Positions 13 through 56,906 of a stretch of 58,696 nt of DNA are shown here, one piece after another; positions within the stretch are counted from its first letter, which is position 1; each line of letters begins with the position of its first letter. Position numbers and translations under genes: made by a program. The stretch is from an uncultured Candidatus Saccharibacteria bacterium (GTDB lineage: Bacteria; Patescibacteriota; Minisyncoccia; Phycocordibacterales; Zambryskibacteraceae). The notes below the pieces were generated by a model, which was not told where the DNA came from, made no database searches, and saw only the letters and a program-made list of their open reading frames with translations. The stretch covers positions 3,789-62,484 of the forward strand of contig CAYIKP010000001.1 in NCBI GenBank assembly GCA_964364225.1. The letters run 5' to 3'.

Positions 13-1143
13 ATGAAATTGCCCTCTATATTCTCGCGCATTTTTAAAAAACCAGAAGGAAGTATTTTGGGTATTGATGTTGGTTCTTCCTCAATAAAAA
101 TTGTACAGCTTCGCAAAAAAGGTGAAACAGCCACACTAGAAACTTATGGAGAGCTGTCTCTTGGCCCATACGCAGGAGGCTCTGTTGGCCAATCAACAAA
201 TCTCCCAACAGAAAAAATAATTGAGGCACTAAATGATTTATTAAAAGAAAAAGAAGTAAATATTTCTACCAAGTCTGCTGCTTTTGCAATACCCTTTGCG
301 TCGAGCTTAATGTCCCTTATTCAAATACCGGATGTACCGATGAAAGAGCTTCAAAACCTAATACCTATTGAGGCTAGAAAATACATTCCTATTCCTATTG
401 CCGAAGTAGCCCTAGATTGGTCCATAATTCCTCGTGACGACACTTCTATAGAGGACAATCCAGAGGGAACTACCACATTTCAAAAACCAAAAGAAAAAGC
501 TCTAGACATCTTGCTTGTGGCTATACACAACACTGTGCTACAAAAATACCAATCTATCGTTACTGGTTGTGGTCTGGAGGCATCTTTTTTTGAAATAGAG
601 ATTTTCTCCACCATGCGTGCAGTTCTTGATGAAACAATTGCACCAGTAATGATTTTTGATATGGGGGCCTCTACCACCAAGCTTTATATTGTGGAAAGAG
701 GTATCGTGCGCCTGTCTCACACAGTGAACAGAGGATCTCATGACATAACTGTTGCTATTTCTAAATCAATGGGGCTCGCATTAGATAGGGCGGAGGTAAT
801 GAAAAGAACTGTCGGTTTGGGTGGCGGAGAAGACAAAGACATGTCAGACATTGTGCATCTCTCGTTGGATTATATTTTTGCAGAAGCAAACAGGGTGATT
901 TTAAATTTTGAAAGAAAATACAATAAAAACTTAAAAAAGATCATTTTTGTTGGTGGCGGTTCCGCACTTAAAGGCTTGGCAGAGCTTGCACAAAATAATT
1001 TTGAGACCCCAGTTGAGACAAGTGATCCTTTTGCAAAAATAGAGGCGCCGGCATTTCTCGAGCAGGCCTTGAAAGAAACTGGTCCAGAGTTTGCTGTGGC
1101 AATTGGTTTGGCATTGAGAAAATTGCGTGAGGGCGGTGAATAA
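13..1143 (+). CDS. pilM: type IV pilus assembly protein PilM (actin-like ATPase fold)
   Basis: 376 aa; N-terminal GIDVGSSSIKIVQL FtsA/actin-like motif; heads a pilMNO-pilB-pilT-pilC cluster. Confidence 0.85.
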   Translation: MKLPSIFSRIFKKPEGSILGIDVGSSSIKIVQLRKKGETATLETYGELSLGPYAGGSVGQSTNLPTEKIIEALNDLLKEKEVNISTKSAAFAIPFASSLMSLIQIPDVPMKELQNLIPIEARKYIPIPIAEVALDWSIIPRDDTSIEDNPEGTTTFQKPKEKALDILLVAIHNTVLQKYQSIVTGCGLEASFFEIEIFSTMRAVLDETIAPVMIFDMGASTTKLYIVERGIVRLSHTVNRGSHDITVAISKSMGLALDRAEVMKRTVGLGGGEDKDMSDIVHLSLDYIFAEANRVILNFERKYNKNLKKIIFVGGGSALKGLAELAQNNFETPVETSDPFAKIEAPAFLEQALKETGPEFAVAIGLALRKLREGGE

Positions 1144-1169
1144 GTGAATAACAGCTATTTGCTTTGAAT

Positions 1170-1183
1170 TATTGCGGTATAAT
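1170..1183 (+). promoter_or_regulatory. putative promoter -10 region (TATTGCGGTATAAT)
   Basis: The 14-mer contains TATAAT (1178-1183) 9 nt before ATG 1193; the identical 14-mer recurs at 7359-7372 upstream of the major pilin. Confidence 0.45.
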
Positions 1184-1192
1184 TAATAAAGA

Positions 1193-1816
1193 ATGGAACC
1201 AAAATTCCAATCATCTTTTATTCCAAAAACCTCTTCGCAGGAAACTGCGGTTCCTAAAGAGGTGGAAAGAGCCACTGGTCCAAGAGACGGTGGTGGTATT
1301 TGGAGTTTTATCTCCAGCACTATTTTTACATTAGCAATTGTGGCCGCCATTGTTGTTTTTGCTGCACAGTGGTATTTAAATAGAAATTTGGTTTCCATGG
1401 GAACACAACTTTCGGCTGCTCGTGAAGAGCTAGACCCCCAAAGGATTCAAGAAATAAATAGAAATTACGACAGAATAATTACCGCTAAAACCCTACTATC
1501 AAAACACGTAACCCTTTCAAGTTTTTTTGAGAAATTAGGAGCAATGATGGTTAAAAACACTCGTCTAACAGATCTTTCATTCAGTATGATTTCTGGTAAG
1601 GGCTCTTCAGTAGCATTCAAGGGTGAGGCAATAGGCTATGTAGCCGTGGCACAGGTTTCTGATGTTTTTAGTAAATCCAATATTTTTAAAACTAGGAATT
1701 TCTTTGATCTCGATCTAAATGATAAGGGGGCAGTCGTTTTCTCTTTTAAGGGTGAAATAGACCCAACGGTAATTATTTCTGGACAAGAACAAAGTACGGA
1801 ACAAGAAAACCAATAA
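1193..1816 (+). CDS. PilN-like pilus assembly membrane protein
   Basis: 207 aa; short cytoplasmic N-terminus, one TM helix (IWSFISSTIFTLAIVAAIVVFAA), then a coiled-coil/periplasmic part; sits directly after pilM; assigned by architecture and position only. Confidence 0.5.
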   Translation: MEPKFQSSFIPKTSSQETAVPKEVERATGPRDGGGIWSFISSTIFTLAIVAAIVVFAAQWYLNRNLVSMGTQLSAAREELDPQRIQEINRNYDRIITAKTLLSKHVTLSSFFEKLGAMMVKNTRLTDLSFSMISGKGSSVAFKGEAIGYVAVAQVSDVFSKSNIFKTRNFFDLDLNDKGAVVFSFKGEIDPTVIISGQEQSTEQENQ

Positions 1817-2370: not shown

Positions 2371-2712
2371 ATGAAATACAACACTAAAATGATTGGCTGG
2401 ATAATAGTGGTAGTAATTGTGGTTAGTGCTTTGTACACACTTGCTTTTAAAGATCCTGTAACAAAAGACGCTTCTGGCGCAACTGCTAGTGTTGGAAGTG
2501 ATCTACTTGAGCTTCTAGACAAACTTAAGGGCGTTAGTTTTGACACTGATTTATTTTCAAGTACAAAATTTTCTTCTCTTATGGACTGGTCGATACCACT
2601 TCCTAGGCCAGATTTAGGGAGACCAAATCCTTTTGAAAGGATTGGACTTGATATTGGAGTAGTAGCGCCAATTAGTACTCAACAGCCAACAGCTACAACA
2701 ACAGCACCTTAA
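2371..2712 (+). CDS. small membrane protein of the pilus operon (PilP-like position), function unknown
   Basis: 113 aa; one TM helix, Thr/Pro-rich tail; tightly packed between the PilO-like gene and pilB. Confidence 0.35.
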   Translation: MKYNTKMIGWIIVVVIVVSALYTLAFKDPVTKDASGATASVGSDLLELLDKLKGVSFDTDLFSSTKFSSLMDWSIPLPRPDLGRPNPFERIGLDIGVVAPISTQQPTATTTAP

Positions 2713-2718
2713 TTTTCT

Positions 2719-4494
2719 ATGAGTTTTCTTGAAATATTAGCCGACAAAAAATTAATTTCGGCCAAAGATATCCAACCTATACAAGAGGAGGCTGAATCAA
2801 AAGGAATTTCTATTGAAAGGATTCTTTTAGATAGGGGAATTGAGGCAAAAGAGATTTTAAAAAGCAAGGGTGAATCACTGGACATTCCGACTAGAGAAAT
2901 TGGCGAAGCCGAAGTTCCGGGTAGTATTTTAGATTTAATCCCCGAAGAGTCGGCGGCTTATTATCGTTTTGTTCCTCTTGGGGTTGAGGATGATGTTTTG
3001 GAGGTTGGAATTGTTGACCCAGACAATATCGAGGCGAGAGATGCTTTGAATTTCATTTCTTCAAAGCTCAACATGCCATTTAAACTTTTTCTTATTACAG
3101 AAGAGGATTTGAAAAAAGTTATTAATCAATACAAGGGGCTTACGGGTGAAGTGACAAAGGCTCTTGGTGAATTTGAAACAGAAATTGCAGAAGACACTAA
3201 AAAAGCGGAGGGACAACAAATGGATGAGGGTCCGCAAGAAGTTGATGCCGGAATTGATGAAGCAATAACCGGATCAATAGAAAGAAAAAATAAAGATGGA
3301 ACAACCACAATTGTTGAAGATGCCCCAGTAGCGAAAATGGTGGGTACGATTTTGCGTTATGCAATTGATGACAATGCGTCAGATGTTCACATAGAACACA
3401 TGGGCACTACTGTAAGGGTTAGGTTTAGAGTTGATGGAGTCCTTAATACTTATTTAACCTTACCGCCAAAAGTCCACCAATCTGTTGTTGCTCGTATAAA
3501 AATTCTTTCAGCCATGCGTCTTGATGAAAAAAGAAAGCCACAGGATAGCCGTTTTTCTGCAAAAGTAGGTGATAGAAAGGTTGACTTCCGTGTTTCTACA
3601 TTTCCAGCTTACTACGGAGAAAAAGTGGTGATGAGAATTCTTGACCAAGCAAAAGGCGTAAGAAGTTTGGAGGAAATTGGAATTACAAAAGAAAGTATTG
3701 GTGTAATTCGTAAGGCAATGGAAAGACCATACGGACTCATTCTTATTTCTGGGCCAACCGGTTCTGGAAAATCCACTACTCTTTATGCCATGTTGAAAGA
3801 ATTTGATCGTGACCACAGAAATGTTTTGTCCCTTGAAGATCCTATTGAGTACAACATTGAGGGCGTTACCCAATCCCAGATTCGTCCTGATATTGGCTAT
3901 ACATTTGCAACAGGGCTACGTACCACCCTCCGTCAAGATCCAGACATCATAATGGTGGGAGAAATTCGTGATAAGGAGACGGCCCAGCTTGCTATACAAG
4001 CGGCACTTACCGGCCACGTAGTGCTTTCTACTATTCACACCAACAACTCTATTGGAGTTATTCCACGCCTTATTGATATGGGTGTTGATCCTTATTTGAT
4101 ACCACCAACCCTTGTTTTAGCTATTGCCCAAAGACTTGTAAGAACCTTGGTTCCTGGTACAGGAAAGAAATTACCAGTAGAAGGTGCAGTTAAGGCCATG
4201 ATAGACAAACAATTTGAAGATTTGCCAGAAGAGTTTAAAAAGAAATTGAAACTCGGAAAAGAATTTAGGGAAATAGAAGCAACAGAAGACAATCCAACAG
4301 GAACCAAGGGTCGTATGGCCGTGATGGAGCTTCTTGAAATGGATAAAGAGGTTGAAAAATTAATTCTTACAAACGCCGGAGAAGCAGAGATATACAAAAT
4401 CGCGCGTTCGAAAGGAATGCTTTCTATGAAAGAGGATGCAATACTAAAAGCATTTGATGGATTAATTCCTTTCGAAGAAGTAGCTGGCTTATAA
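2719..4494 (+). CDS. pilB: type IV pilus assembly ATPase PilB (GspE family)
   Basis: 591 aa; Walker A GPTGSGKST, LSLEDPIEY, VGEIRD, TGHVVLSTIHTN boxes typical of GspE/PilB. Confidence 0.92.
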   Translation: MSFLEILADKKLISAKDIQPIQEEAESKGISIERILLDRGIEAKEILKSKGESLDIPTREIGEAEVPGSILDLIPEESAAYYRFVPLGVEDDVLEVGIVDPDNIEARDALNFISSKLNMPFKLFLITEEDLKKVINQYKGLTGEVTKALGEFETEIAEDTKKAEGQQMDEGPQEVDAGIDEAITGSIERKNKDGTTTIVEDAPVAKMVGTILRYAIDDNASDVHIEHMGTTVRVRFRVDGVLNTYLTLPPKVHQSVVARIKILSAMRLDEKRKPQDSRFSAKVGDRKVDFRVSTFPAYYGEKVVMRILDQAKGVRSLEEIGITKESIGVIRKAMERPYGLILISGPTGSGKSTTLYAMLKEFDRDHRNVLSLEDPIEYNIEGVTQSQIRPDIGYTFATGLRTTLRQDPDIIMVGEIRDKETAQLAIQAALTGHVVLSTIHTNNSIGVIPRLIDMGVDPYLIPPTLVLAIAQRLVRTLVPGTGKKLPVEGAVKAMIDKQFEDLPEEFKKKLKLGKEFREIEATEDNPTGTKGRMAVMELLEMDKEVEKLILTNAGEAEIYKIARSKGMLSMKEDAILKAFDGLIPFEEVAGL

Positions 4495-5025: not shown

Positions 5026-6091
5026 CTCATCTGAACACAACGCATTATTTACAGAACTAGTGGACATTTGTGTTCAAGAGAATGGTTCGGATTTGCATCT
5101 TTCAGAAGACAGATCTCCCATAATAAGAGTCGATGGTTTTCTTATTCCTCTAGTAAAAAAGAGCGCGCTTACTCATGAAAACATAGAAGGAATACTTTCT
5201 GTGATTCTTTCTGAATCAAACCTAGAAGAGTTCAAGGCTCGTAAAGAGGTTGATTTTGGATACACCCATGATGGCAAAGCTAGATTTAGGGGAAATGCAT
5301 ATTATGAACTTGGTAAAATTTCTATTGCGCTCCGTTTAATCCCTCAAAAAATTCGTACACTTACAGAATTAAACCTTCCTCCCATTCTTGAGCAATTTGC
5401 ACATAGGCAACAAGGATTTTTCTTAGTGGTTGGGCCTGCTGGTCATGGAAAAACTACTACCCTAGCAGCACTCATTGATATGATCAACCATGAAAGATTG
5501 GAGCACATTATTACAATTGAGTCTCCAATAGAATATATTTTTACTGAAGACAAGGCCTTAATTGACCAAAGAGAAGTAAAAATTGATACCCCAAGTTTTC
5601 ACGATGCACTACGCGGAATTTTTCGACAAGATATTGATGTTTTGATGATTGGTGAAATGCGAGACATTGAAACCATTTCAACTGCAGTAACCGCTGCAGA
5701 AACAGGACACTACGTTATGACAACCCTTCATACCAATACGGCTTCACAAACAATTGAACGTATTATTGACTCTTTCCCTGCTAACCAACAAAATCAAATT
5801 AGAGTTCAACTTTCTGGATCTTTGGCCGGTATTTTTTCCCAGCGTCTTATACCCAGAATCTCAGGGGGTCTAATTCCTGCCTATGAACTTTTAGTGAATA
5901 ATGCTGCGGTATCTAATTTAATAAGAGATAATAGAACTCACGAGATAGATAATGTTATAGAAACGTCTAGTGAATTAGGAATGGTCGATCTAAACAGATC
6001 TTTAGCTGACCTAGTTCGTAGTGGGGAAATCACGACCGAAAATGCATTTCTTTATTCAACAGACCCAAGATCGTTAGAAAAACTTATGTAA
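5021..6091 (+). CDS. pilT: twitching-motility ATPase PilT
   Basis: Walker A GPAGHGKTTT, IITIESPIEY, MIGEMRD, TGHYVMTTLHTN; start set at ATG 5021 (MNSSEH...) because 4994-5020 is the 3' arm of the hairpin element. Confidence 0.9.
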   Translation: MNSSEHNALFTELVDICVQENGSDLHLSEDRSPIIRVDGFLIPLVKKSALTHENIEGILSVILSESNLEEFKARKEVDFGYTHDGKARFRGNAYYELGKISIALRLIPQKIRTLTELNLPPILEQFAHRQQGFFLVVGPAGHGKTTTLAALIDMINHERLEHIITIESPIEYIFTEDKALIDQREVKIDTPSFHDALRGIFRQDIDVLMIGEMRDIETISTAVTAAETGHYVMTTLHTNTASQTIERIIDSFPANQQNQIRVQLSGSLAGIFSQRLIPRISGGLIPAYELLVNNAAVSNLIRDNRTHEIDNVIETSSELGMVDLNRSLADLVRSGEITTENAFLYSTDPRSLEKLM

Positions 6092-6092
6092 T

Positions 6093-7304
6093 ATGTTATA
6101 TCAATACCAAACAATATCTGTAGAGGGGAAAAAAGAAGAAGGCAATATAGATGCAGCATCGCTTGATATTGCTATTGCTTCGCTCCATAAAAGGGGATTA
6201 ACGGTAGCCGAGATTCACCCAGTAGAGGGAGAAAAAAAGTTTGGAATAATTTCACAACTTACAAAGAGAGTAACCAACAAAGAGGTTGTTATTCTGTCGC
6301 GTCAGTTGGCCACCCTTTTCCAAGCCCAAGTTTCTGCACTGAGAGTTTTCAAATTGTTGGCTGGGGAAGCAGAAAATTTATTGCTTCGCGAATCTTTGAC
6401 AGAAATCACGGATGATTTACAAGGAGGATCAAGTATTTCCAAAGCACTAAGTAAGCATCCTAAAATTTTCTCTGAATTTTATGTAAACATGGTACGCGCC
6501 GGAGAAGAGACCGGAAAACTCGATGACACCTTTACTTATTTAGCAGATCACCTAGACCGTACATACGAAGTAACATCAAAAGCACGTAATGCTTTTATTT
6601 ACCCCTCCTTTGTGGTTATAGTTTTTATTGGAGTAATGGTTTTGATGTTTACTTTAATTATTCCTAAAATTGCAGTTATCATTCAGGATTCTGGCCAAGA
6701 AATCCCTATATATACCAAAATAGTTTTCGCTATTTCTAGTTTCTTTGTGAATTACGGACTGTTAATTTCTGCTCTGCTCGTCATAGGTTTGTTTTTCTTA
6801 ATTAGGTTTGCTCGCACAGAAGAAGGTAAAATCGCTTTTGATAGAAGCAAGTTAACATATCCATATATAGGGGACCTTTACAGAAAACTCTATCTTTCGG
6901 TTATCTCTGACAACATGCATACCATGGTTGTTTCTGGAATTCCTATGTTAAAGGCTCTTGAAATTACTTCTAGCGTTGTAGGAAATGCTGTTTATAAGGA
7001 TATTCTTTCTGCTGCAGCGACAGATGTTAAGGGTGGCGCTTCTCTTTCTTTAGCCATTTCTAAGTATCACGAAATACCCAGCATTTTAGTTCAAATGGTT
7101 AAGGTTGGAGAAGAGACAGGAGAGTTGGGCAACATTCTTAATACTATGGCTAAGTTTTATCAAAGAGAAGTAAATAATGCCGTAGATGTGATAGTGAGCC
7201 TCATTGAGCCGGTCATGATTGTGGGCTTGGGTCTTGGAGTTGGAGTGCTCTTGGCTTCGGTTCTACTTCCTATTTACAACATTGCTTCAAACGCTGGCAT
7301 ATAA
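6093..7304 (+). CDS. pilC: type IV pilus platform protein PilC (GspF family)
   Basis: 403 aa; duplicated T2SS-F domain organisation with interspersed TM helices. Confidence 0.9.
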   Translation: MLYQYQTISVEGKKEEGNIDAASLDIAIASLHKRGLTVAEIHPVEGEKKFGIISQLTKRVTNKEVVILSRQLATLFQAQVSALRVFKLLAGEAENLLLRESLTEITDDLQGGSSISKALSKHPKIFSEFYVNMVRAGEETGKLDDTFTYLADHLDRTYEVTSKARNAFIYPSFVVIVFIGVMVLMFTLIIPKIAVIIQDSGQEIPIYTKIVFAISSFFVNYGLLISALLVIGLFFLIRFARTEEGKIAFDRSKLTYPYIGDLYRKLYLSVISDNMHTMVVSGIPMLKALEITSSVVGNAVYKDILSAAATDVKGGASLSLAISKYHEIPSILVQMVKVGEETGELGNILNTMAKFYQREVNNAVDVIVSLIEPVMIVGLGLGVGVLLASVLLPIYNIASNAGI

Positions 7305-7931: not shown

Positions 7932-8772
7932 GATTTATAATGAATATGTGAATTCTATTTTGTTTTTCATTTTTATATTTGTCCTAGGTACTATTGTGGG
8001 CAGTTTTATAAACGTCTTTATTTTTAGACGCGCAACTGGAATGGGGATGGGCGGAAGATCCAAATGCGCTTCCTGTGGACACACACTAAGGGCGCTTGAT
8101 TTAATTCCAGTGATTTCCTTTTTACTTCTTGGAGGAAAATGTAGGTATTGCAAAACGAAAATTTCTTCGATATATCCTCTTATTGAAATTGGGGCAGGAG
8201 CATTATTTTTTCTGATCGGTTTAGTAAATACATCAATACTTATTTCATTTTCTGTTATTCCTTATTCCATGTTTTTTATTCAACTTGTGTTTTGGTCACT
8301 AGTTTTTGCAACCGCAGTCTATGATTTGAAGCATCTAACAATTCCTAATATGTGGGCACTTTCTTTGACGATCATTGCCATAATTTATTCTGCGATTAGT
8401 AATTATGGTTTTGGGAAAAATTTCCTTTTTTCAATACTCTCTGGCGCTATTTTCTTTATATTCTTTTTCTTAATATGGCTCTTTTCAAGAGGAAAATGGA
8501 TGGGTCTTGGAGATGCAAAATTAGCATTTCCGCTTGGTGTATTTTTGGGCATATCAAAATTATTTTCAGCATGGGCACTCTCTTTTTGGACTGGTGCAAT
8601 AATTGTATTAATTTATTTTTCTTACGAACAAATTATCTTGGCTAAAGGCAAAAGGTTGAGTGCGCTCGGTAGGCCAATTACCATGAAGAGTGAGGTGCCA
8701 TTCGGCCCTTTCCTATTTCTTGGTTCTTTTCTTGCTTTTTTGGGTCTAGTAATTCCGTTTAGTGGTATTTAA
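7924..8772 (+). CDS. pilD: prepilin peptidase PilD (A24 family)
   Basis: CxxC...CxxC zinc motif (CASCGHTL, CRYCKTKIS), multiple TM helices, catalytic Asp context GLGDAKL; the ORF-track GTG 7924 lies inside the terminator stem, so the true start is probably GTG 7948 or TTG 7960. Confidence 0.9.
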   Translation: MFLIYNEYVNSILFFIFIFVLGTIVGSFINVFIFRRATGMGMGGRSKCASCGHTLRALDLIPVISFLLLGGKCRYCKTKISSIYPLIEIGAGALFFLIGLVNTSILISFSVIPYSMFFIQLVFWSLVFATAVYDLKHLTIPNMWALSLTIIAIIYSAISNYGFGKNFLFSILSGAIFFIFFFLIWLFSRGKWMGLGDAKLAFPLGVFLGISKLFSAWALSFWTGAIIVLIYFSYEQIILAKGKRLSALGRPITMKSEVPFGPFLFLGSFLAFLGLVIPFSGI

Positions 8773-21978: not shown

Positions 21979-22006
21979 TTGACAAAAATAATAGATCTGC
22001 TACAAT
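21979..22006 (+). promoter_or_regulatory. sigma-70-type promoter (TTGACA-16-TACAAT)
   Basis: TTGACA at 21979-21984, 16-nt spacer, TACAAT at 22001-22006. Confidence 0.6.
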
Positions 22007-22012
22007 AGGCAC

Positions 22013-22155
22013 AGAAGTTCATAAAATAAATTGGTGCAAAAAAAGCAGGACCCTGTGGGCGGTGTATATATAAAGACCGCCAAACAATATAGGCTAAAAT
22101 GCCTATATTGAAATGTTTCTCAGCCCCTCACTTAAAAAAGTGAGGGGCTTTTTTT
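22013..22155 (+). ncRNA. candidate small RNA (about 140 nt) between a consensus promoter and an intrinsic terminator
   Basis: Hairpins ggcggt/accgcc (22058-22081) and caatataggc/gcctatattg (22085-22110), and terminator agcccctcac/gtgaggggct plus T7 (22122-22155); no ORF with a credible start. Confidence 0.45.
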
Positions 22156-22193
22156 ATTTGATTTAAAACACCTGCTAATATAGCCTGTATACA

Positions 22194-35583: not shown

Positions 35584-35612
35584 TTGACAAAAATATATAG
35601 ATATGCTACTAT
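35584..35612 (+). promoter_or_regulatory. sigma-70-type promoter (TTGACA-17-TACTAT) of the GC-rich cassette
   Basis: TTGACA at 35584-35589, 17-nt spacer, TACTAT at 35607-35612. Confidence 0.65.
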
Positions 35613-35689
35613 ATACACAGCAGTACAGTAACATCCCGTTTCTAACTGGTTTTACAACGCACTCGCCCTAAGTGGGCAAAGGAGTCACC

Positions 35690-36361
35690 GTGATCAACCG
35701 GAGCCGCTACAACGCTGTGGCCAACTACCTCAAGGCAGTGGCCAAGAAGATGGTCGAGGCGCTCAAGGATGCCGAGAACATCATCCCGCAGTTCGCGATT
35801 CCCGCCGACGTCTTCGCGAGCTCGAACAAGGATGCGAATGCCGTGATGAACACGGTTCGCCAGCTGGAGCTCGATCCCGAAGGTGCGAACATCGTGCGTC
35901 TGCAGGACGCCGGTGCATTCGCGGACGAGATCGCCTCGTACTTCGGCGAGCGCAAGAGCCTCGAACAGCGCTTCCTGCACTCGCAGTGGCTCTCCGACGA
36001 CATGTACAACCGTATCGTCGTCCTGCCGAACGAGTTCGCGGAACCCCTCATCATCCTCTGGAAGGCGTATGACGCCATCCGGCAGAATGGTGCGGAGACC
36101 TCCGAGCTTCGGAGCGCGTGGACCGAGATCGACAAGAAGCTTCGTGCTGCCGAGATCGCCTCGGTGGGGAAGGAGCTTCGCGAGTCGAACCCGGCTCGTC
36201 GGGTCAGGCTGACGCTGGCGCCGAAGCCCGTCGCGAGCGCCTCTCCCAAGGGACGCAACGCTGAGAAGCGCCAGCACGATCGGCAGATTCGCGCGTCCAT
36301 GCAGCAGGGCAAGGGTACCGCGTCGAACAGCAAGGCCAAGAAGAACAAGAAGCACGCCTAA
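35690..36361 (+). CDS. GC-rich orphan protein with a Lys/Arg-rich C-terminal tail, function unknown
   Basis: About 60% GC (36/60 on line 35701) against 35% in the flank; AAAGGAG 5 nt before GTG 35690 (ORF-track start GTG 35672 is in frame); the plus strand is chosen because the promoter, SD and terminator are all on the plus strand. Confidence 0.6.
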   Translation: MINRSRYNAVANYLKAVAKKMVEALKDAENIIPQFAIPADVFASSNKDANAVMNTVRQLELDPEGANIVRLQDAGAFADEIASYFGERKSLEQRFLHSQWLSDDMYNRIVVLPNEFAEPLIILWKAYDAIRQNGAETSELRSAWTEIDKKLRAAEIASVGKELRESNPARRVRLTLAPKPVASASPKGRNAEKRQHDRQIRASMQQGKGTASNSKAKKNKKHA

Positions 36362-36382
36362 CCGGCACGCGAGAAACGGGGA

Positions 36383-36416
36383 ACAGCCATCTCTAAAGGG
36401 TGGCTGTTTTCTTTTG
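36383..36416 (+). terminator. rho-independent terminator of the GC-rich cassette
   Basis: acagcca-tctctaaaggg-tggctgt followed by tttcttttg. Confidence 0.7.
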
Positions 36417-43525: not shown

Positions 43526-43834
43526 ATGGCTAAAAAATTGTTCGTGGGCGGAATCCCTTACACTTCCACAGAAGATGCAATTCGTGCACTCTTCGCGACT
43601 GTTGGTGCTGTTGAGTCAGTTGCAATTATTACTGACCGCATGACCGGCCGTTCAAAAGGTTTCGGTTTCGTTGAAATGGTGTCTGATGAAGATGCTCAGA
43701 AAGCAATCGATACTTTGAACGAGTCAGACTTCGAAGGCAGAAAAATTTCTGTTAAAGAAGCACAACCAAAGGCTCCTCGTGAAGGAGGCTTCGGAGGTGG
43801 CGACAGAGGTGGACGTGGTCGTGGTGGATACTAA
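43526..43834 (+). CDS. RRM-type RNA-binding protein with RGG tail
   Basis: RNP2 LFVGGI and RNP1 KGFGFVEM; C-terminal GGFGGGDRGGRGRGGY. Confidence 0.85.
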   Translation: MAKKLFVGGIPYTSTEDAIRALFATVGAVESVAIITDRMTGRSKGFGFVEMVSDEDAQKAIDTLNESDFEGRKISVKEAQPKAPREGGFGGGDRGGRGRGGY

Positions 43835-43961: not shown

Positions 43962-44402
43962 ATGTCGCGATCGAGCGAAGAATTTTCGGCAGAGGAACGG
44001 GCTGTATTTGAGGCGTTCGTGGCAAAGCATTTACCACGGACCACGCCACTCAATGGCCATCCCAAGCTTCTGATCGTGAATCAGAGTGATCTCCCATTGC
44101 CGAATGTTATGCAGTGGATTCACGAACATGCACCCGCGATTGTCTCGATCTCCACTGTTGAAATGATGTTCAACAAGATGGAGGGTCGTTCTCAAAGAAT
44201 CGGGAATGGCAAAATTCTCCGTATTGCTCTAGAGGTTGTGGAGCGTCTTTTCGCAATGAGAGACAAGCATACCTTCAAGGTTGGATACAACATTGTGCTC
44301 ATCCTGCGGGGCGAGTACATGAATATCTCCGGTGAGGTTATCAGGCTTGCGACTTCGCTCGGTGCTGAATGCAAAGTGTATGAGCATGACGAATTGGTCT
44401 AG
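43962..44402 (+). CDS. hypothetical protein in a GC-elevated cassette
   Basis: 146 aa; about 53% GC (32/60 on line 44041); GGAGGG 3 nt before the ATG; own terminator. Confidence 0.5.
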   Translation: MSRSSEEFSAEERAVFEAFVAKHLPRTTPLNGHPKLLIVNQSDLPLPNVMQWIHEHAPAIVSISTVEMMFNKMEGRSQRIGNGKILRIALEVVERLFAMRDKHTFKVGYNIVLILRGEYMNISGEVIRLATSLGAECKVYEHDELV

Positions 44403-44491: not shown

Positions 44492-44511
44492 TTGTAGTGC
44501 TAGAAGCGACC

Positions 44512-44631
44512 TTACTCCTTTTTACGCTTGGGACTGATGTTCACGATGCCCTGATCGTCGTTCTTGTTGACAGCTCTCACGGCAGCGAACACGATCACCG
44601 CTATGGCCACTACTCCGATGATAATCCACAT
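44512..44631 (-). CDS. 39-aa single-TM peptide (below the ORF-track cutoff)
   Basis: Minus strand: AAGGAGG-7 nt-ATG; MWIIIGVVAIAVIVFAAVRAVNKNDDQGIVNISPKRKKE; own terminator; GC-elevated. Confidence 0.55.
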   Translation of the reverse strand: MWIIIGVVAIAVIVFAAVRAVNKNDDQGIVNISPKRKKE

Positions 44632-47512: not shown

Positions 47513-47541
47513 TTGACAAACAACTAATTTAGGTATATACT
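47513..47541 (+). promoter_or_regulatory. sigma-70-type promoter (TTGACA-17-TATACT) of the DGR target gene
   Basis: TTGACA at 47513-47518, 17-nt spacer, TATACT at 47536-47541. Confidence 0.65.
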
Positions 47542-47575
47542 AGGTCTAGTAAAGTACCTTAATAAACCACTTGCA

Positions 47576-47634
47576 TCGCCATAGCTTTTAGAGCTTCAAA
47601 TCAGATTAATTTGGAGAATTAAAAGCTATGGCGA
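47576..47634 (+). promoter_or_regulatory. long 5'-UTR hairpin upstream of the DGR target gene
   Basis: Perfect 15-bp stem tcgccatagctttta/taaaagctatggcga with 29-nt loop; followed by a gctatc-GCAA-gatagc hairpin (47664-47679) and GGGAGA SD. Confidence 0.6.
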
Positions 47635-47694
47635 CACAACGGTCGTCCACTGGCAAACTAGCTATCGCAAGATAGCGCTTCATGGGAGAACCCT

Positions 47695-48303
47695 ATGAGC
47701 ACCAACGCAACACTGGACCAGGCCGGTCACGTCCTTCGTCTCGTAAGCGACAAGGGCGTCACCAAGGAACAACTGGCGGGCATCGTGAACGACGGCACCC
47801 TGCCGGACTTCCTCGAAGCCGTGGCAACGGGCTCTAACAAGAGCCGGGAAGAACTTCGCGCTTTCCTCGGCCTCGGCCCGCTCGTCCTCTCGGTCATCGT
47901 GGATTACACGATGAGCCTCGCCGATATGATCAAGGCGGGGAAGTACGACTGGACGAACCACGACATCACCGAGAAGCGATTCCCCGTGAAGGGCGAGGGC
48001 AAGAAGGAGACCGCCGTCGAACTCATCCACTTCAACCGTGTGATGAACTCCAACCAGGTGGAGCAGGAACTCGACAAGATGGGACTTCGTCCCGGAACGA
48101 CCGAGGAACTGCTCGCCTTCGGCGCGACCTTCCCGGAAACGCAACGGAAGTTCCCTATCCTCGCGCTCGGCTCAGTCGCCGAGATCAGCGGTGGTCGCGT
48201 CGTGGCGTACCTCGACGGGGGCGGCTCCGAGCGTAGGCTCCGCCTGTACTGGCCTGACAACGACTGGAGCGTGGTCTGTCGGTTCCTCGCTGTTCGCAAG
48301 TAG
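47695..48303 (+). CDS. DGR target (variable) protein, GC-rich
   Basis: 202 aa; the last 43 codons are the VR; about 63% GC (38/60 on line 47761); GGGAGA 5 nt before the ATG; C-terminus ...YWPDNDWSVVCRFLAVRK. Confidence 0.85.
   Translation: MSTNATLDQAGHVLRLVSDKGVTKEQLAGIVNDGTLPDFLEAVATGSNKSREELRAFLGLGPLVLSVIVDYTMSLADMIKAGKYDWTNHDITEKRFPVKGEGKKETAVELIHFNRVMNSNQVEQELDKMGLRPGTTEELLAFGATFPETQRKFPILALGSVAEISGGRVVAYLDGGGSERRLRLYWPDNDWSVVCRFLAVRK
48169..48297 (+). repeat. DGR variable region (VR)
   Basis: 129 nt, gap-free match to 48658-48786 with 23 mismatches, 22 of them at TR adenines. Confidence 0.9.
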
Positions 48304-48358
48304 TACTCTGGCACTCGGACCTTGGATCAGACGCTTTGATCCTTTGGCCCTTGAGCGC

Positions 48359-48394
48359 GGCCCCGACACGAGATGTGTCGGGGCCGTTTCATTT
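48359..48394 (+). terminator. GC-rich hairpin / terminator downstream of the VR
   Basis: ggccccgacac-gagat-gtgtcggggcc (48359-48385) followed by gtttcattt. Confidence 0.7.
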
Positions 48395-48657
48395 ATATAA
48401 ATTTCTTCTATACAATGATAATGACAAATGAAAAATCTAAGGTTACGGCTTTAGGTAATTTGTCCGCACACCTAGGTAATGAGAATTTCGGAGATTACGA
48501 TTTCCGAAAGAGGGTTTCTAGGTTTGGATTAAAAACTAGAGAAAGTTGGTGCGATACACTTTGTGATAATAAAGATCACGAATACGATTCAATCTCAAAA
48601 GTCCGACTAAGATTTTTCGGACTTAAGAGATGGTGGCATGGATGGCGTGTCGCACAT

Positions 48658-48786
48658 GGCTCAGTCGCCAAGATCAACGGTAACCGCAACGTGGCGTACC
48701 TCAACAGGAACGACTCCAAGCGTAAGCTCAACCTGAACTGGCAAGACAACGACTGGAACGAGATCTATCGGTTCCTCGCTGTTCGC
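48658..48786 (+). repeat. DGR template region (TR)
   Basis: Adenine-rich copy of the VR with 9 AAC codons in the VR frame; the last 18-19 nt have no A and are identical to the VR. Confidence 0.9.
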
Positions 48787-48788
48787 TA

Positions 48789-49121
48789 CTATCCATGGTT
48801 CTCCTGGGATTTGTTCCCAGGAGTTTTGTTAACAAGTTGTCTCTTCCAACCCCCGAGCATTTTCCCAATCTCGTTAAGCATTTCAGATATATGAGTATAT
48901 TTTTTTGTATCAAGTGCTTTTATTTCCCAAGCAAGTTGTAAAAGAAGTTTTATTAGATCAACCCTTGAAATTGCTCTATCAACTAGCACAATTTTTTCCA
49001 CACTTGTTGAGTAACTTGCGAGAAAACAATATTCAATGGCAGCCAAAAACACGTCGTCAATCTTCGAACCGAGTGTAAAACGATTTGCTTTCGGAAAATG
49101 TGTTAAAAACCCTTGCCACAC
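48789..49121 (-). CDS. avd: Avd-like four-helix-bundle accessory protein (N-terminally incomplete as called)
   Basis: ...FPKANRFTLGSKIDD...EIGKMLGGWKRQ resembles the DGR Avd / 23S-IVS four-helix-bundle family; lies on the strand opposite to TR and RT; the frame stays open upstream of GTG 49121. Confidence 0.7.
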   Translation of the reverse strand: MWQGFLTHFPKANRFTLGSKIDDVFLAAIEYCFLASYSTSVEKIVLVDRAISRVDLIKLLLQLAWEIKALDTKKYTHISEMLNEIGKMLGGWKRQLVNKTPGNKSQENHG

Positions 49122-56720: not shown

Positions 56721-56894
56721 ATGAAAGCCAAAATAAAACGGAAGGCAGGTAAGGCCACTAAGGCTTCAAAGCCTTCCAGTGGGTGCAGAAAGGAAAGAGA
56801 AAGGCTCCCTTATTGGGTAGCAGGTAGCAAGGAGCCGTGGCCCAAATCGAAAGAACGTCGGCCAGTTCCTGGTTGGAGTGGGGGCAGTTGGTAG
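56721..56894 (+). CDS. 57-aa highly basic, Trp-rich protein (below the ORF-track cutoff)
   Basis: GAGGG 4 nt before the ATG; MKAKIKRKAGKATKASKPSSGCRKERERLPYWVAGSKEPWPKSKERRPVPGWSGGSW; about 50% GC; own promoter and terminator. Confidence 0.55.
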   Translation: MKAKIKRKAGKATKASKPSSGCRKERERLPYWVAGSKEPWPKSKERRPVPGWSGGSW

Positions 56895-56906
56895 GCCCAT
56901 GGAATG

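Follow-up and report, generated by a model that had tools for sequence, protein, structure and literature searches.

Organization and conservation of the GC-rich unit

We analysed a unit at positions 35584-36416 of a 58.7-kb stretch of DNA from an uncultured member of the Patescibacteria (this whole stretch is referred to as the window). The unit lies between secG and groES and contains a single GC-rich gene, here termed X; W denotes the window's own sequence and locus, and L001–L020 denote loci in related genomes. A first-pass annotation had described a promoter, a leader of about 70 nt, a Shine-Dalgarno (SD) sequence, a GTG start codon, an open reading frame (ORF) of 223 aa with a Lys/Arg-rich tail, and a terminator. 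All of them are present and in place, and together with the structural elements predicted here they give the following layout:

35584-35612, plus strand: sigma-70-type promoter, with the -35 element TTGACA (35584-35589), a 17-nt spacer and the TG-extended -10 element TACTAT (35607-35612)
35619-35689, plus strand: predicted 5' untranslated region (UTR) of about 71 nt, GC content 0.49, its start inferred from the position of the -10 element
35635-35643, plus strand: 5' arm of a predicted end-pairing helix, CCCGTTTCT, complementary in 9 of 9 positions to 36372-36380
35665-35677, plus strand: small hairpin GCCC-TAAGT-GGGC directly 5' of the SD sequence, predicted by RNAalifold
35678-35684, plus strand: SD sequence AAAGGAG, recognised by sequence, with a 5-nt spacer to the GTG at 35690
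35690-36361, plus strand: coding sequence (CDS) of X, 223 aa, with the TAA stop codon at 36359-36361 and GC contents at the first, second and third codon positions of 0.61, 0.41 and 0.85
36372-36380, plus strand: 3' arm of the same predicted helix, AGAAACGGG, located 10 nt past the stop codon and abutting the terminator, from RNAalifold and the alignment
36382-36416, plus strand: intrinsic terminator with the stem AACAGCCA.../...TGGCTGTT followed by a U-tract (placed at 36378-36412 by a stem-loop search)

The compositional anomaly noted in the first-pass annotation, both in windowed GC content and at third codon positions, is pronounced. The GC content is 0.58–0.63 across 35601-36400 versus 0.33–0.36 in the adjoining 400-nt bins, the CDS has 62% GC versus a background of 0.38, and its third-position GC content (GC3) of 0.85 compares with about 0.27 genome-wide. 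The UTRs of X are GC-enriched as well (0.49 for the 5' UTR and 0.55 for the 3' UTR, versus 0.17–0.41 in other spacers), and GC skew at X is not marked (-0.05 and +0.02). All ordinary genes of the window have GC3 values of 0.20–0.38, and besides X a value above 0.8 is found only in the variable-protein gene of a diversity-generating retroelement (DGR; CDS 47695-48303). A strict search for perfect TTGACA-N16-18-TAnnnT sites returned three in the window, those of X, of a unit at 21979 and of the DGR variable-protein gene at 47513; the first 44 nt from 35584 are 84% identical to the promoter at 21979. No promoter-like sites were found on the minus strand inside the unit.

Our searches identified few relatives of X, nearly all of them in the same place. 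A search of 5.8 billion proteins returned four clusters, namely X itself and relatives at 74%, 70% and 53% identity, all of them from syntenic Paceibacterota, and an exhaustive profile search of 1.84 billion representatives added only one fragment and one remote homologue. No homologues were detected in phage, plasmid and viral collections, including tblastn searches and viral contigs. The orthologues (53–75% identity) occupy the same slot in the same orientation, with secG divergent upstream and groES(-groEL) or LemA downstream, as seen in L001, L003, L009, L011 and L020. The slot neighbours in all loci are secG, SBP, RNase J, groES/EL and LemA, with the RNase J gene at a distance of 2 kb from X. 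The L001 genome lacks groES-groEL at the locus, LemA following directly after X (6634-6780), which indicates that X is not tied to the chaperonin operon. The close orthologues have about 62% GC and GC3 values of 0.76–0.80 in genomes of 36–46% GC. The first-pass annotation had considered that homologues of the same GC content in AT-rich relatives, together with a housekeeping function, would speak against its interpretation; such homologues exist, and no housekeeping function is known for them. The remote homologue (L010) lies in another genomic context and has 58% GC and a GC3 of 0.77 in a genome of about 49% GC. Upstream of its promoter, at 5898-5912, we observed an exact recurrence of the 15-mer of the X leader hairpin (CTCGCCCTAAGTGGG) followed by a terminator, possibly the relic of an earlier cassette.

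The signals that surround the CDS, including an AT-rich promoter and leader, are conserved along with the slot. The -35 and -10 region is kept in L001, L009 and L003 and in two more distant relatives, L017 and L018 (see below), and the leader block GTACAGTAACAnCCCGTTTCT is conserved in four orthologous loci and in L017. The orthologues begin at an aligned ATG or GTG and share the SD sequence. In the hairpin next to it, GCCC/GGGC is retained in three loci and two inner pairs in four of four, without covariation. The terminator is conserved in L001 and L009, and in L003 and L017 a different hairpin occupies the same place. An identical X protein is encoded on eight contigs, six of which were read (three ENA and three Logan assemblies from different Hainich groundwater samples); these six, which represent two assemblers or sources, match the window base for base across both borders of the GC-rich stretch, and X shows no population variation among them.

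No integrase, transposase, repeats or tRNA genes flank the slot in any locus, and there is no tRNA gene near the unit. The window contains no second copy of any part of X, no silent cassettes and no paralogues. With no second copy in the window, X carries no DGR variable repeat, and the window's DGR is 11 kb away. Features of an integron cassette were not seen either: X has its own consensus promoter and there is no integrase among the called neighbours, attC sites not having been formally searched. Judged by its sequence and synteny, X is a protein-coding gene that is resident in a small groundwater clade of Paceibacterota, inherited vertically within it and restricted to it.

The X protein is predicted to consist of an all-helical body of about 165 aa and a basic tail, with a net charge of +14 in the last 60 aa. 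In W, L001 and L009 the charge of the body ranges from acidic to neutral; the tail carries the conserved motif G-R-x-A-x-K-R-x-x-D-R-Q-x-R; the orthologue alignment contains 100 invariant residues. No signal peptide or membrane segment is visible in the sequence. The earlier statement that no domain is recognisable in the 223-aa protein is borne out by our homology and structure searches, which yielded no family or fold: there are no matches in Pfam, PHROGs, NCBIfam and PADLOC, and a sequence/profile search of the PDB was empty. Matches to DUF7179 (E = 0.095) and, for two orthologues, to RepB (E = 0.04–0.05) were rejected as sub-threshold noise. An AlphaFold2 model built from a 4-sequence alignment is all-helical with a confidence score (pLDDT) of only 47, and the Foldseek matches obtained with it (best E = 0.6, to designed helical repeats) are for this reason meaningless. 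Going by its charge pattern and by the expression signals of the unit, we would guess that the product is an abundant nucleic-acid-binding protein.

Maintenance of composition and predicted folding of the transcript

The GC-rich composition of X is an evolutionarily stable trait. The ratio of nonsynonymous to synonymous substitution rates (dN/dS) is 0.24–0.47 against the orthologues, versus 0.01–0.11 for the flanking genes, so that X evolves faster than its neighbours and is nevertheless under purifying selection. The dS of the flanks is 0.33–1.35 among W, L001 and L009 and mostly saturated relative to L003. The dS of X is 0.7–1.2, yet its GC3 is 0.76–0.85 in all orthologues; the GC3 of the genomes that harbour it ranges from 0.27 to 0.5, the value having shifted to about 0.5 in L003. 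The synonymous sites of X are not unusually conserved, their proportion of differences (pS) being 0.45–0.46, like that of the flanks. The divergence of X roughly parallels that of the flanks (W, L001 and L009 being closest and L003 farthest), with the pair L001-L009 not resolved as the closest. Amelioration toward the composition of the recipient was thus looked for and not seen, as GC3 stays at 0.76–0.85 despite diverged or saturated flanks.

To obtain the direction of change, synonymous third-position substitutions were polarised by parsimony within the ingroup, with L003 as the outgroup. We counted 25 changes from G/C to A/T and 15 from A/T to G/C, at sites that are about 80% G/C. Per site, changes to G/C are about twice as frequent as changes to A/T, which implies an equilibrium GC3 of about 0.7; under neutral decay to the genomic value of 0.27, about 11 changes to A/T would be expected for each change to G/C. 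Parsimony with a distant outgroup is crude, and its known bias is to overcount changes to A/T, i.e. it opposes the conclusion that GC is maintained. This compositional steady state indicates that selection keeps X GC-rich in the face of the AT-biased substitution of the genome. An island that is syntenic, has no donor and stays at a GC-rich steady state while the genomes drift between 36% and 49% GC appears to have its composition itself under selection.

The codon usage of X is inverse to that of the genome (r = -0.26). Lys and Gln are encoded exclusively by AAG (19 of 19) and CAG (10 of 10), the codons TTA, ATA and AGA are absent, and A occupies 3% of the third positions versus 36% genome-wide. 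The amino acid usage is also GC-shifted (Ala 14.8% versus 7.3%, Arg 8.1% versus 4.1%). The groEL gene has AT-rich codons (GC3 0.29).

The coding region of X is predicted to fold more stably than its codons require. Folding z-scores were computed against synonymous-codon shuffles and are -2.7 (W), -3.9, -3.0 and -5.9 for the X orthologues, -2.5, -3.1 and -2.8 for three DGR target genes, and -3.7 and -3.9 for the genes in the slots of L017 and L018. Ten AT-rich neighbours gave values from -2.4 to +1.5 (mean about -0.5), and six ordinary genes of 59–66% GC, from S. meliloti pSymA, gave -0.9 to +1.0 (mean +0.09). The consensus folding energy of the CDS alignment has z = -2.8 versus column shuffles. 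The folding excess, the GC-rich UTRs and the unremarkable synonymous conservation seem to point to a pressure on composition or overall foldedness more than on one fixed structure. Long antisense ORFs within X are predicted by its codon usage, and an overlapping antisense gene was rejected: the fully open -1 frame recurs in 100% of the synonymous shuffles, and in L003 neither the -1 nor the -2 frame is open throughout.

A long-range helix between the two UTRs was first predicted by RNAalifold on four full units. It takes the form CCCGTTTCT/AGAAACGGG in W, CCCGTTTCT/GGAAACGGG in L001 and L009, CTCATTTCT/AGAAGTGAG in L003 and CCCATTTTT/AGAAATGGG in L017. Each of the four distinct sequences (five loci) can form all nine core pairs; two of the pairs are compensatory, three changes are wobble-compatible and none is disruptive. 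In every locus the 3' arm lies 8–11 nt past the stop codon, directly before the terminator. When the 3' UTR was shuffled, a 9-bp match to the homologous leader 9-mer had p = 0.004–0.015 per locus. In partition-function folding of the full transcripts (798–1005 nt) the helix is part of the minimum free energy structure in five of five loci; in four loci most of its pairs have probabilities of 0.9–1.0 (0.94–1.0 in the 798-nt W transcript), and the value for L009 is 0.44. RNAduplex applied to the whole UTRs did not discriminate them from shuffles. The predicted end pairings of L018 and L010 reach the start or SD region and are without covariation support. As far as these comparisons go, the UTR arms appear to covary and the mRNA is predicted to have excess structure.

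Further relatives were retrieved by anchoring on SecG. L017 and L018, whose SecG proteins are 84% and 80% identical, carry a GC-enriched gene with coding periodicity in the same slot and orientation, with a GC3 of 0.72 in the former (in a genome of 49% GC) and 0.88 in the latter (in a genome of 40% GC). Their promoters and leaders align with those of X, and L017 also carries the UTR helix. By hhalign, BLASTP, Smith-Waterman with shuffles, blastn and tblastx, no similarity of their proteins or DNA bodies to X was found in any frame; off-frame tblastx matches were rejected as compositional. The C-terminal 60 residues carry a charge of +15 in L017, compared with +12 to +14 in the X orthologues; the L018 protein has no such tail and is a singleton in the protein search. 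In L019 (SecG 86% identical) the slot is taken by a different, helix-turn-helix (HTH)-like gene on the other strand, and in still more distant relatives it is empty. The expression frame is thus more conserved than its product, and the coding body may have undergone either runaway divergence or replacement. A homologous gene occurs at 1086-1706 (plus strand) in L019 and at 2503-3114 (plus strand) in L018; it encodes 203–206 aa (MPRK...THAQIG...RQRVAVRIRR), has about 50% GC and looks HTH-like. In L019 this gene stands alone between secG and LemA, and in L018 it stands beside the GC-rich gene.

The first-pass annotation had also noted a common design of X and the DGR target gene, which our analysis supports. 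This gene is organised as follows:

47513-48392, plus strand: DGR variable-protein gene, with promoter 47513-47541, leader hairpin 47576-47634, CDS 47695-48303 and terminator at about 48357-48392

The 3' end (about 130 nt, the C-terminal variable repeat) of this GC-rich gene of 202 aa is repeated downstream in the template repeat (about 48650-48790), with adenine-specific differences. The -35 context CTTGACAAA is common to the gene and X, its GC3 is 0.82, it has its own terminator, and the codon usages of the X family and the DGR target family are correlated with r = 0.77. The DGR target family comprises more than 160 clusters, mostly from Patescibacteria. In three further genomes of 34.5–48% GC the target gene has 54–56% GC and GC3 values of 0.61–0.68, and the reverse transcriptase (RT) gene of the same cassette, in two of the three genomes, follows the genome (GC3 0.26 and 0.51). 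Thus, the DGR variable-protein gene obeys the same compositional rule as X, and the two look like a small class of specially built transcripts. A helix between the UTRs of the kind seen in X was not found in the DGR target mRNA. In the literature searched, we came across no description of DGR target genes that are GC-rich throughout, nor of classes of GC-rich genes in Patescibacteria.

The DGR leader contains a long hairpin (CGCCATAGCTTTT...AAAAGCTATGGCG, 47576-47590 with 47620-47634, plus strand), which in three other genomes (L012, L013 and L014) is retained with compensating changes (CGCCACAGCAGAAAG.../CGTCATAGCCAAAAG...) upstream of position 8001, and which could represent a conserved RNA structure with a regulatory or DGR-related role. 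In L012 (7101-10483; GCA_964582295.1), the ribosomal protein operon contains, between rplB and rpsS, the DGR target and RT genes together with a Y1 transposase.

Proposed selection on the message and competing explanations

The interpretation that we favour, and to which we give an even chance, is that X is resident and fast-evolving, that it encodes a protein with a basic tail, and that selection keeps its mRNA GC-rich and paired at the ends, probably for the sake of stability. The consensus promoter would give rise to a monocistronic mRNA of about 800 nt that ends at its own terminator. The whole transcript would be GC-enriched, beyond the third codon positions, with a coding region more stably folded than its own codon usage predicts, and the 9-bp helix linking the 5' UTR and the 3' UTR would stack on the terminator hairpin and close the molecule. 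These three features suggest that a compact, nuclease-resistant transcript could be the object of selection. The likely benefit would be shielding from RNases that attack single-stranded AU-rich RNA and free ends, and hence a long-lived message for what is predicted to be a fast-evolving helical protein with a strongly basic tail.

By analogy, the closest precedent is the hbs mRNA of Bacillus subtilis, in which a 14-bp interaction of the 5' UTR with the 3' UTR modulates cleavage by RNase Y and hence the access of RNase J1 (PMC5737220). Like X, hbs is a monocistronic mRNA for a small basic protein, with a strong SD sequence and long-range UTR pairing, and RNase J is encoded near X. In hbs, however, the 14 bp cover a mapped RNase Y site, whereas the helix predicted for X has 9 bp; moreover, hbs does not deviate in composition from its own genome, and the two proteins are not homologous. 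Another mRNA closed by pairing of its ends is that of hok in the hok/sok type I toxin-antitoxin system, whose fbi/tac pairing was described by the Gerdes laboratory in the 1990s. It is a very stable, compact full-length molecule, as predicted for X, but its 3' arm is formed by the very 3' end of the molecule, which is processed off to activate translation, whereas the arm of X lies upstream of an intact terminator. The hok gene encodes a small hydrophobic toxin and is accompanied by an antisense RNA; X encodes a soluble, basic protein of 223 aa, and no antisense promoter was found in the unit. A type I toxin-antitoxin system of the hok/sok kind was rejected on these grounds. In Staphylococcus aureus icaR, a 3' UTR segment likewise pairs with the 5' UTR of the same mRNA, where it binds the SD region and represses translation (PMC3868564). 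The 5' arm of X differs in being 35 nt upstream of the SD sequence.

Several points weigh against selection for a stable message. The covariation comprises four distinct sequences and two compensatory pairs, and the 3' segments were picked after the RNAalifold result; its score was matched in 55 of 500 shuffles, a control that is not decisive in a small sample. Single-sequence folding of 16 control pseudo-transcripts also yields long-range end helices fairly often (three with at least 8 consecutive bp, nine with at least 5 bp), so that the thermodynamic prediction by itself says little, and it is conservation and covariation in a small sample that carry the argument. The CDS of the remote homologue in L010 shows no excess folding (z = -0.9). 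The 5' arm begins about 17 nt from the predicted 5' end and leaves the SD sequence uncovered, a position that does not readily explain how it would block RNase J or RNase Y. The transcription start of X is a prediction, the transcript ends being read from signals in the DNA, and the polarisation of substitutions used parsimony with a nearly saturated outgroup. The function of the protein has no support from homology or a confident structure. Finally, selection on codons, with gating of translation, fits the same data nearly as well as RNA stability.

This last explanation is the main rival. It states that GC-ending codons are selected for their dependence on scarce or conditionally available tRNAs, so that X and the DGR protein would be translated in a particular state only, with the folding and the UTR helix being secondary; we consider it unlikely. 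It is consistent with a codon usage that is inverse to that of the genome and matches that of the DGR target, and with the AT-rich codons of the highly expressed groEL, which indicate that the GC-ending codons are not the translationally optimal set here. There is a precedent in the bldA/TTA system of Streptomyces, where a small gene set is likewise marked by genome-rare codons; it involves, however, one rare codon and one tRNA, whereas in X the recoding extends over the entire CDS and the GC enrichment to the UTRs. In one variant, the particular state might be one in which tRNAs of a GC-rich host are available. Codon gating is made more interesting by a preprint that reports uptake of host RNA by Patescibacteria and a codon usage of the parasite complementary to that of GC-rich hosts (10.64898/2026.06.21.733656). 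Against codon gating, the window itself encodes tRNAs with CNN anticodons (Thr-CGT and Gln-CTG), i.e. resident readers dedicated to G-ending codons. Furthermore, the GC-enriched UTRs and the shifted amino acid usage point to a pressure at the level of nucleotides rather than codons, and the folding excess over synonymous shuffles is not predicted by this explanation.

Another possibility, which we regard as distinctly unlikely, is that the site next to secG is a hotspot in which foreign or exchanged genes sit behind a fixed promoter and leader, their GC content raised by GC-biased recombination. The CDSs of L017 and L018, GC-enriched and unlike X inside a homologous frame of promoter and leader, would fit such a slot, and so would the different gene in L019, the empty sites of more distant relatives, the recognisable homologue of X in another context in L010, the recurrence of the leader 15-mer ahead of the promoter of this homologue, and the rapid evolution of the X protein relative to its neighbours. 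However, the rise in GC is limited to the transcript and the promoter is AT-rich; none of the loci shows flanking mobility genes, repeats or tRNA genes, and the window contains no partial copies or silent cassettes. Within the X clade, X and its flanks diverge roughly in parallel, and the six population assemblies are identical in X. In addition, the known effects of GC-biased conversion in bacteria shift GC3 by a few percent, not from 0.27 to 0.85. The Borrelia vls locus is also a locally GC-rich, fast-evolving gene in an AT-rich genome, and a link to diversification exists here through the DGR target that shares the trait; unlike vls, X has no silent cassettes, no marked GC skew and no population variation.

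A broader proposal, speculative and in our opinion a long shot, is that Patescibacteria keep a small class of transcripts, among them those of the secG-slot and DGR variable-protein genes, GC-rich, highly folded and host-like in composition owing to an RNA-scavenging, host-attached lifestyle. Such messages could survive in an RNase-rich cytoplasm that degrades imported RNA, or their translation could be tied to host-derived tRNA. If this were true, extreme codon heterogeneity within a genome would not be a trace left by gene transfer but a heritable expression code of adaptive value.

An RNA as the main product, i.e. a stable, structured and end-paired molecule acting for example as a decoy or sponge for RNA-degrading or RNA-binding factors, with an ORF that is tolerated, secondary or arisen de novo in stop-poor GC-rich sequence, seems improbable to us. 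The promoter, leader and helix arms do outlast the protein, being kept in L017 where the protein is unrecognisable, and excess structure is found in all slot genes as well as in the consensus fold of the CDS alignment. On the other hand, the three-base periodicity is strong, dN/dS is below 0.5 and 100 residues are invariant, all of which contradict a structured noncoding RNA; the SD sequence is good, at the right distance and conserved in the orthologues, synonymous sites are not unusually conserved, and the body of X has no match in Rfam.

The first-pass annotation had proposed that X was captured from a high-GC donor such as a host or phage. As a recent event that has not yet been ameliorated, such an acquisition is already contradicted by our results, and we give it very little credence. 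It is true that the composition and codon usage of X resemble those of a normal gene from a genome of about 62–65% GC, that its amino acid composition is GC-shifted, and that the reported hosts of Patescibacteria are GC-rich. However, X is syntenic and has about 62% GC in at least four diverged lineages (36–46% GC); its synteny, promoter, leader and UTR helix are conserved across lineages with saturated flank divergence, the exchange between G/C and A/T is at a steady state, and mobility genes are absent nearby. Neither X nor the singleton slot protein of L018 has a homologue that would indicate a donor, none being found outside the clade. A capture in the distant past is conceivable, but it would not explain the persistence of the composition. 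Horizontally acquired islets of atypical GC content, as treated in the amelioration model of Lawrence and Ochman, share with X a sharp anomaly in GC and codon usage, an orphan gene and a slot that varies among relatives; X differs in a composition undecayed over saturated divergence, in having no donor and no mobility genes, and in a promoter and UTRs that co-evolve in place. An assembly chimera that joined a high-GC fragment to an AT-rich contig, to which the sharp composition borders might have been due and which had been raised as a potential objection to the earlier interpretation, is refuted by the two junctions, identical in six assemblies, and by the same arrangement in other species.

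Of the earlier interpretation, the recent donor capture therefore falls, and its alternative, a distinct expression class, is retained in a sharpened form: of the three perfect promoters, two belong to X and the DGR target, the codon usage of both genes runs counter to that of the genome, and their mRNAs are predicted to be over-folded, to which X adds the covarying UTR helix. The transcript of X is predicted to be a stable mRNA with paired ends, and X is a compositional island that does not behave like a transferred gene. Gene-sized islands of high GC content in AT-rich genomes are as a rule attributed to horizontal transfer, and here, as in the widespread DGR family of Patescibacteria, in which the RT gene follows the GC content of the genome and the target gene does not, this may be misleading. 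If confirmed, selection for a stable message would call for caution in composition-based calls of horizontal transfer in these genomes, would provide a concrete example, from an uncultivated lineage, of selection on the architecture of a whole transcript (GC content, folding and 5'/3' pairing), and would bear on recent claims that the codon usage of Patescibacteria is shaped by the handling of host RNA.

Other GC-enriched genes and promoters of the window

Three orphan ORFs of about 50% GC had been listed beside X and the DGR target as genes of the same design:

43962-44402, plus strand: moderately GC-enriched orphan ORF
44500-44631, minus strand: moderately GC-enriched orphan ORF
56721-56895, plus strand: moderately GC-enriched orphan ORF

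Their kinship with X is weak, as the GC3 of the ORF at 43962 is 0.56 and none of the three has a perfect consensus promoter. The ORF at 43962 (146 aa) is also called in other assemblies and has no Pfam match.

Upstream of it, at 43526-43834 (plus strand), we found a gene for an RNA-binding protein of the RNA recognition motif type with a glycine-rich tail and a near-consensus promoter (TTGACT-17-TATAAT); its leader starts with GTACAG, as does that of X. The third perfect consensus promoter of the window precedes a unit of 145 nt (21979-22156, plus strand) with three hairpins and a strong terminator at 22122-22155. No Rfam family matches it above threshold, its folding z-score is -6.8, and it is probably an unannotated small RNA.

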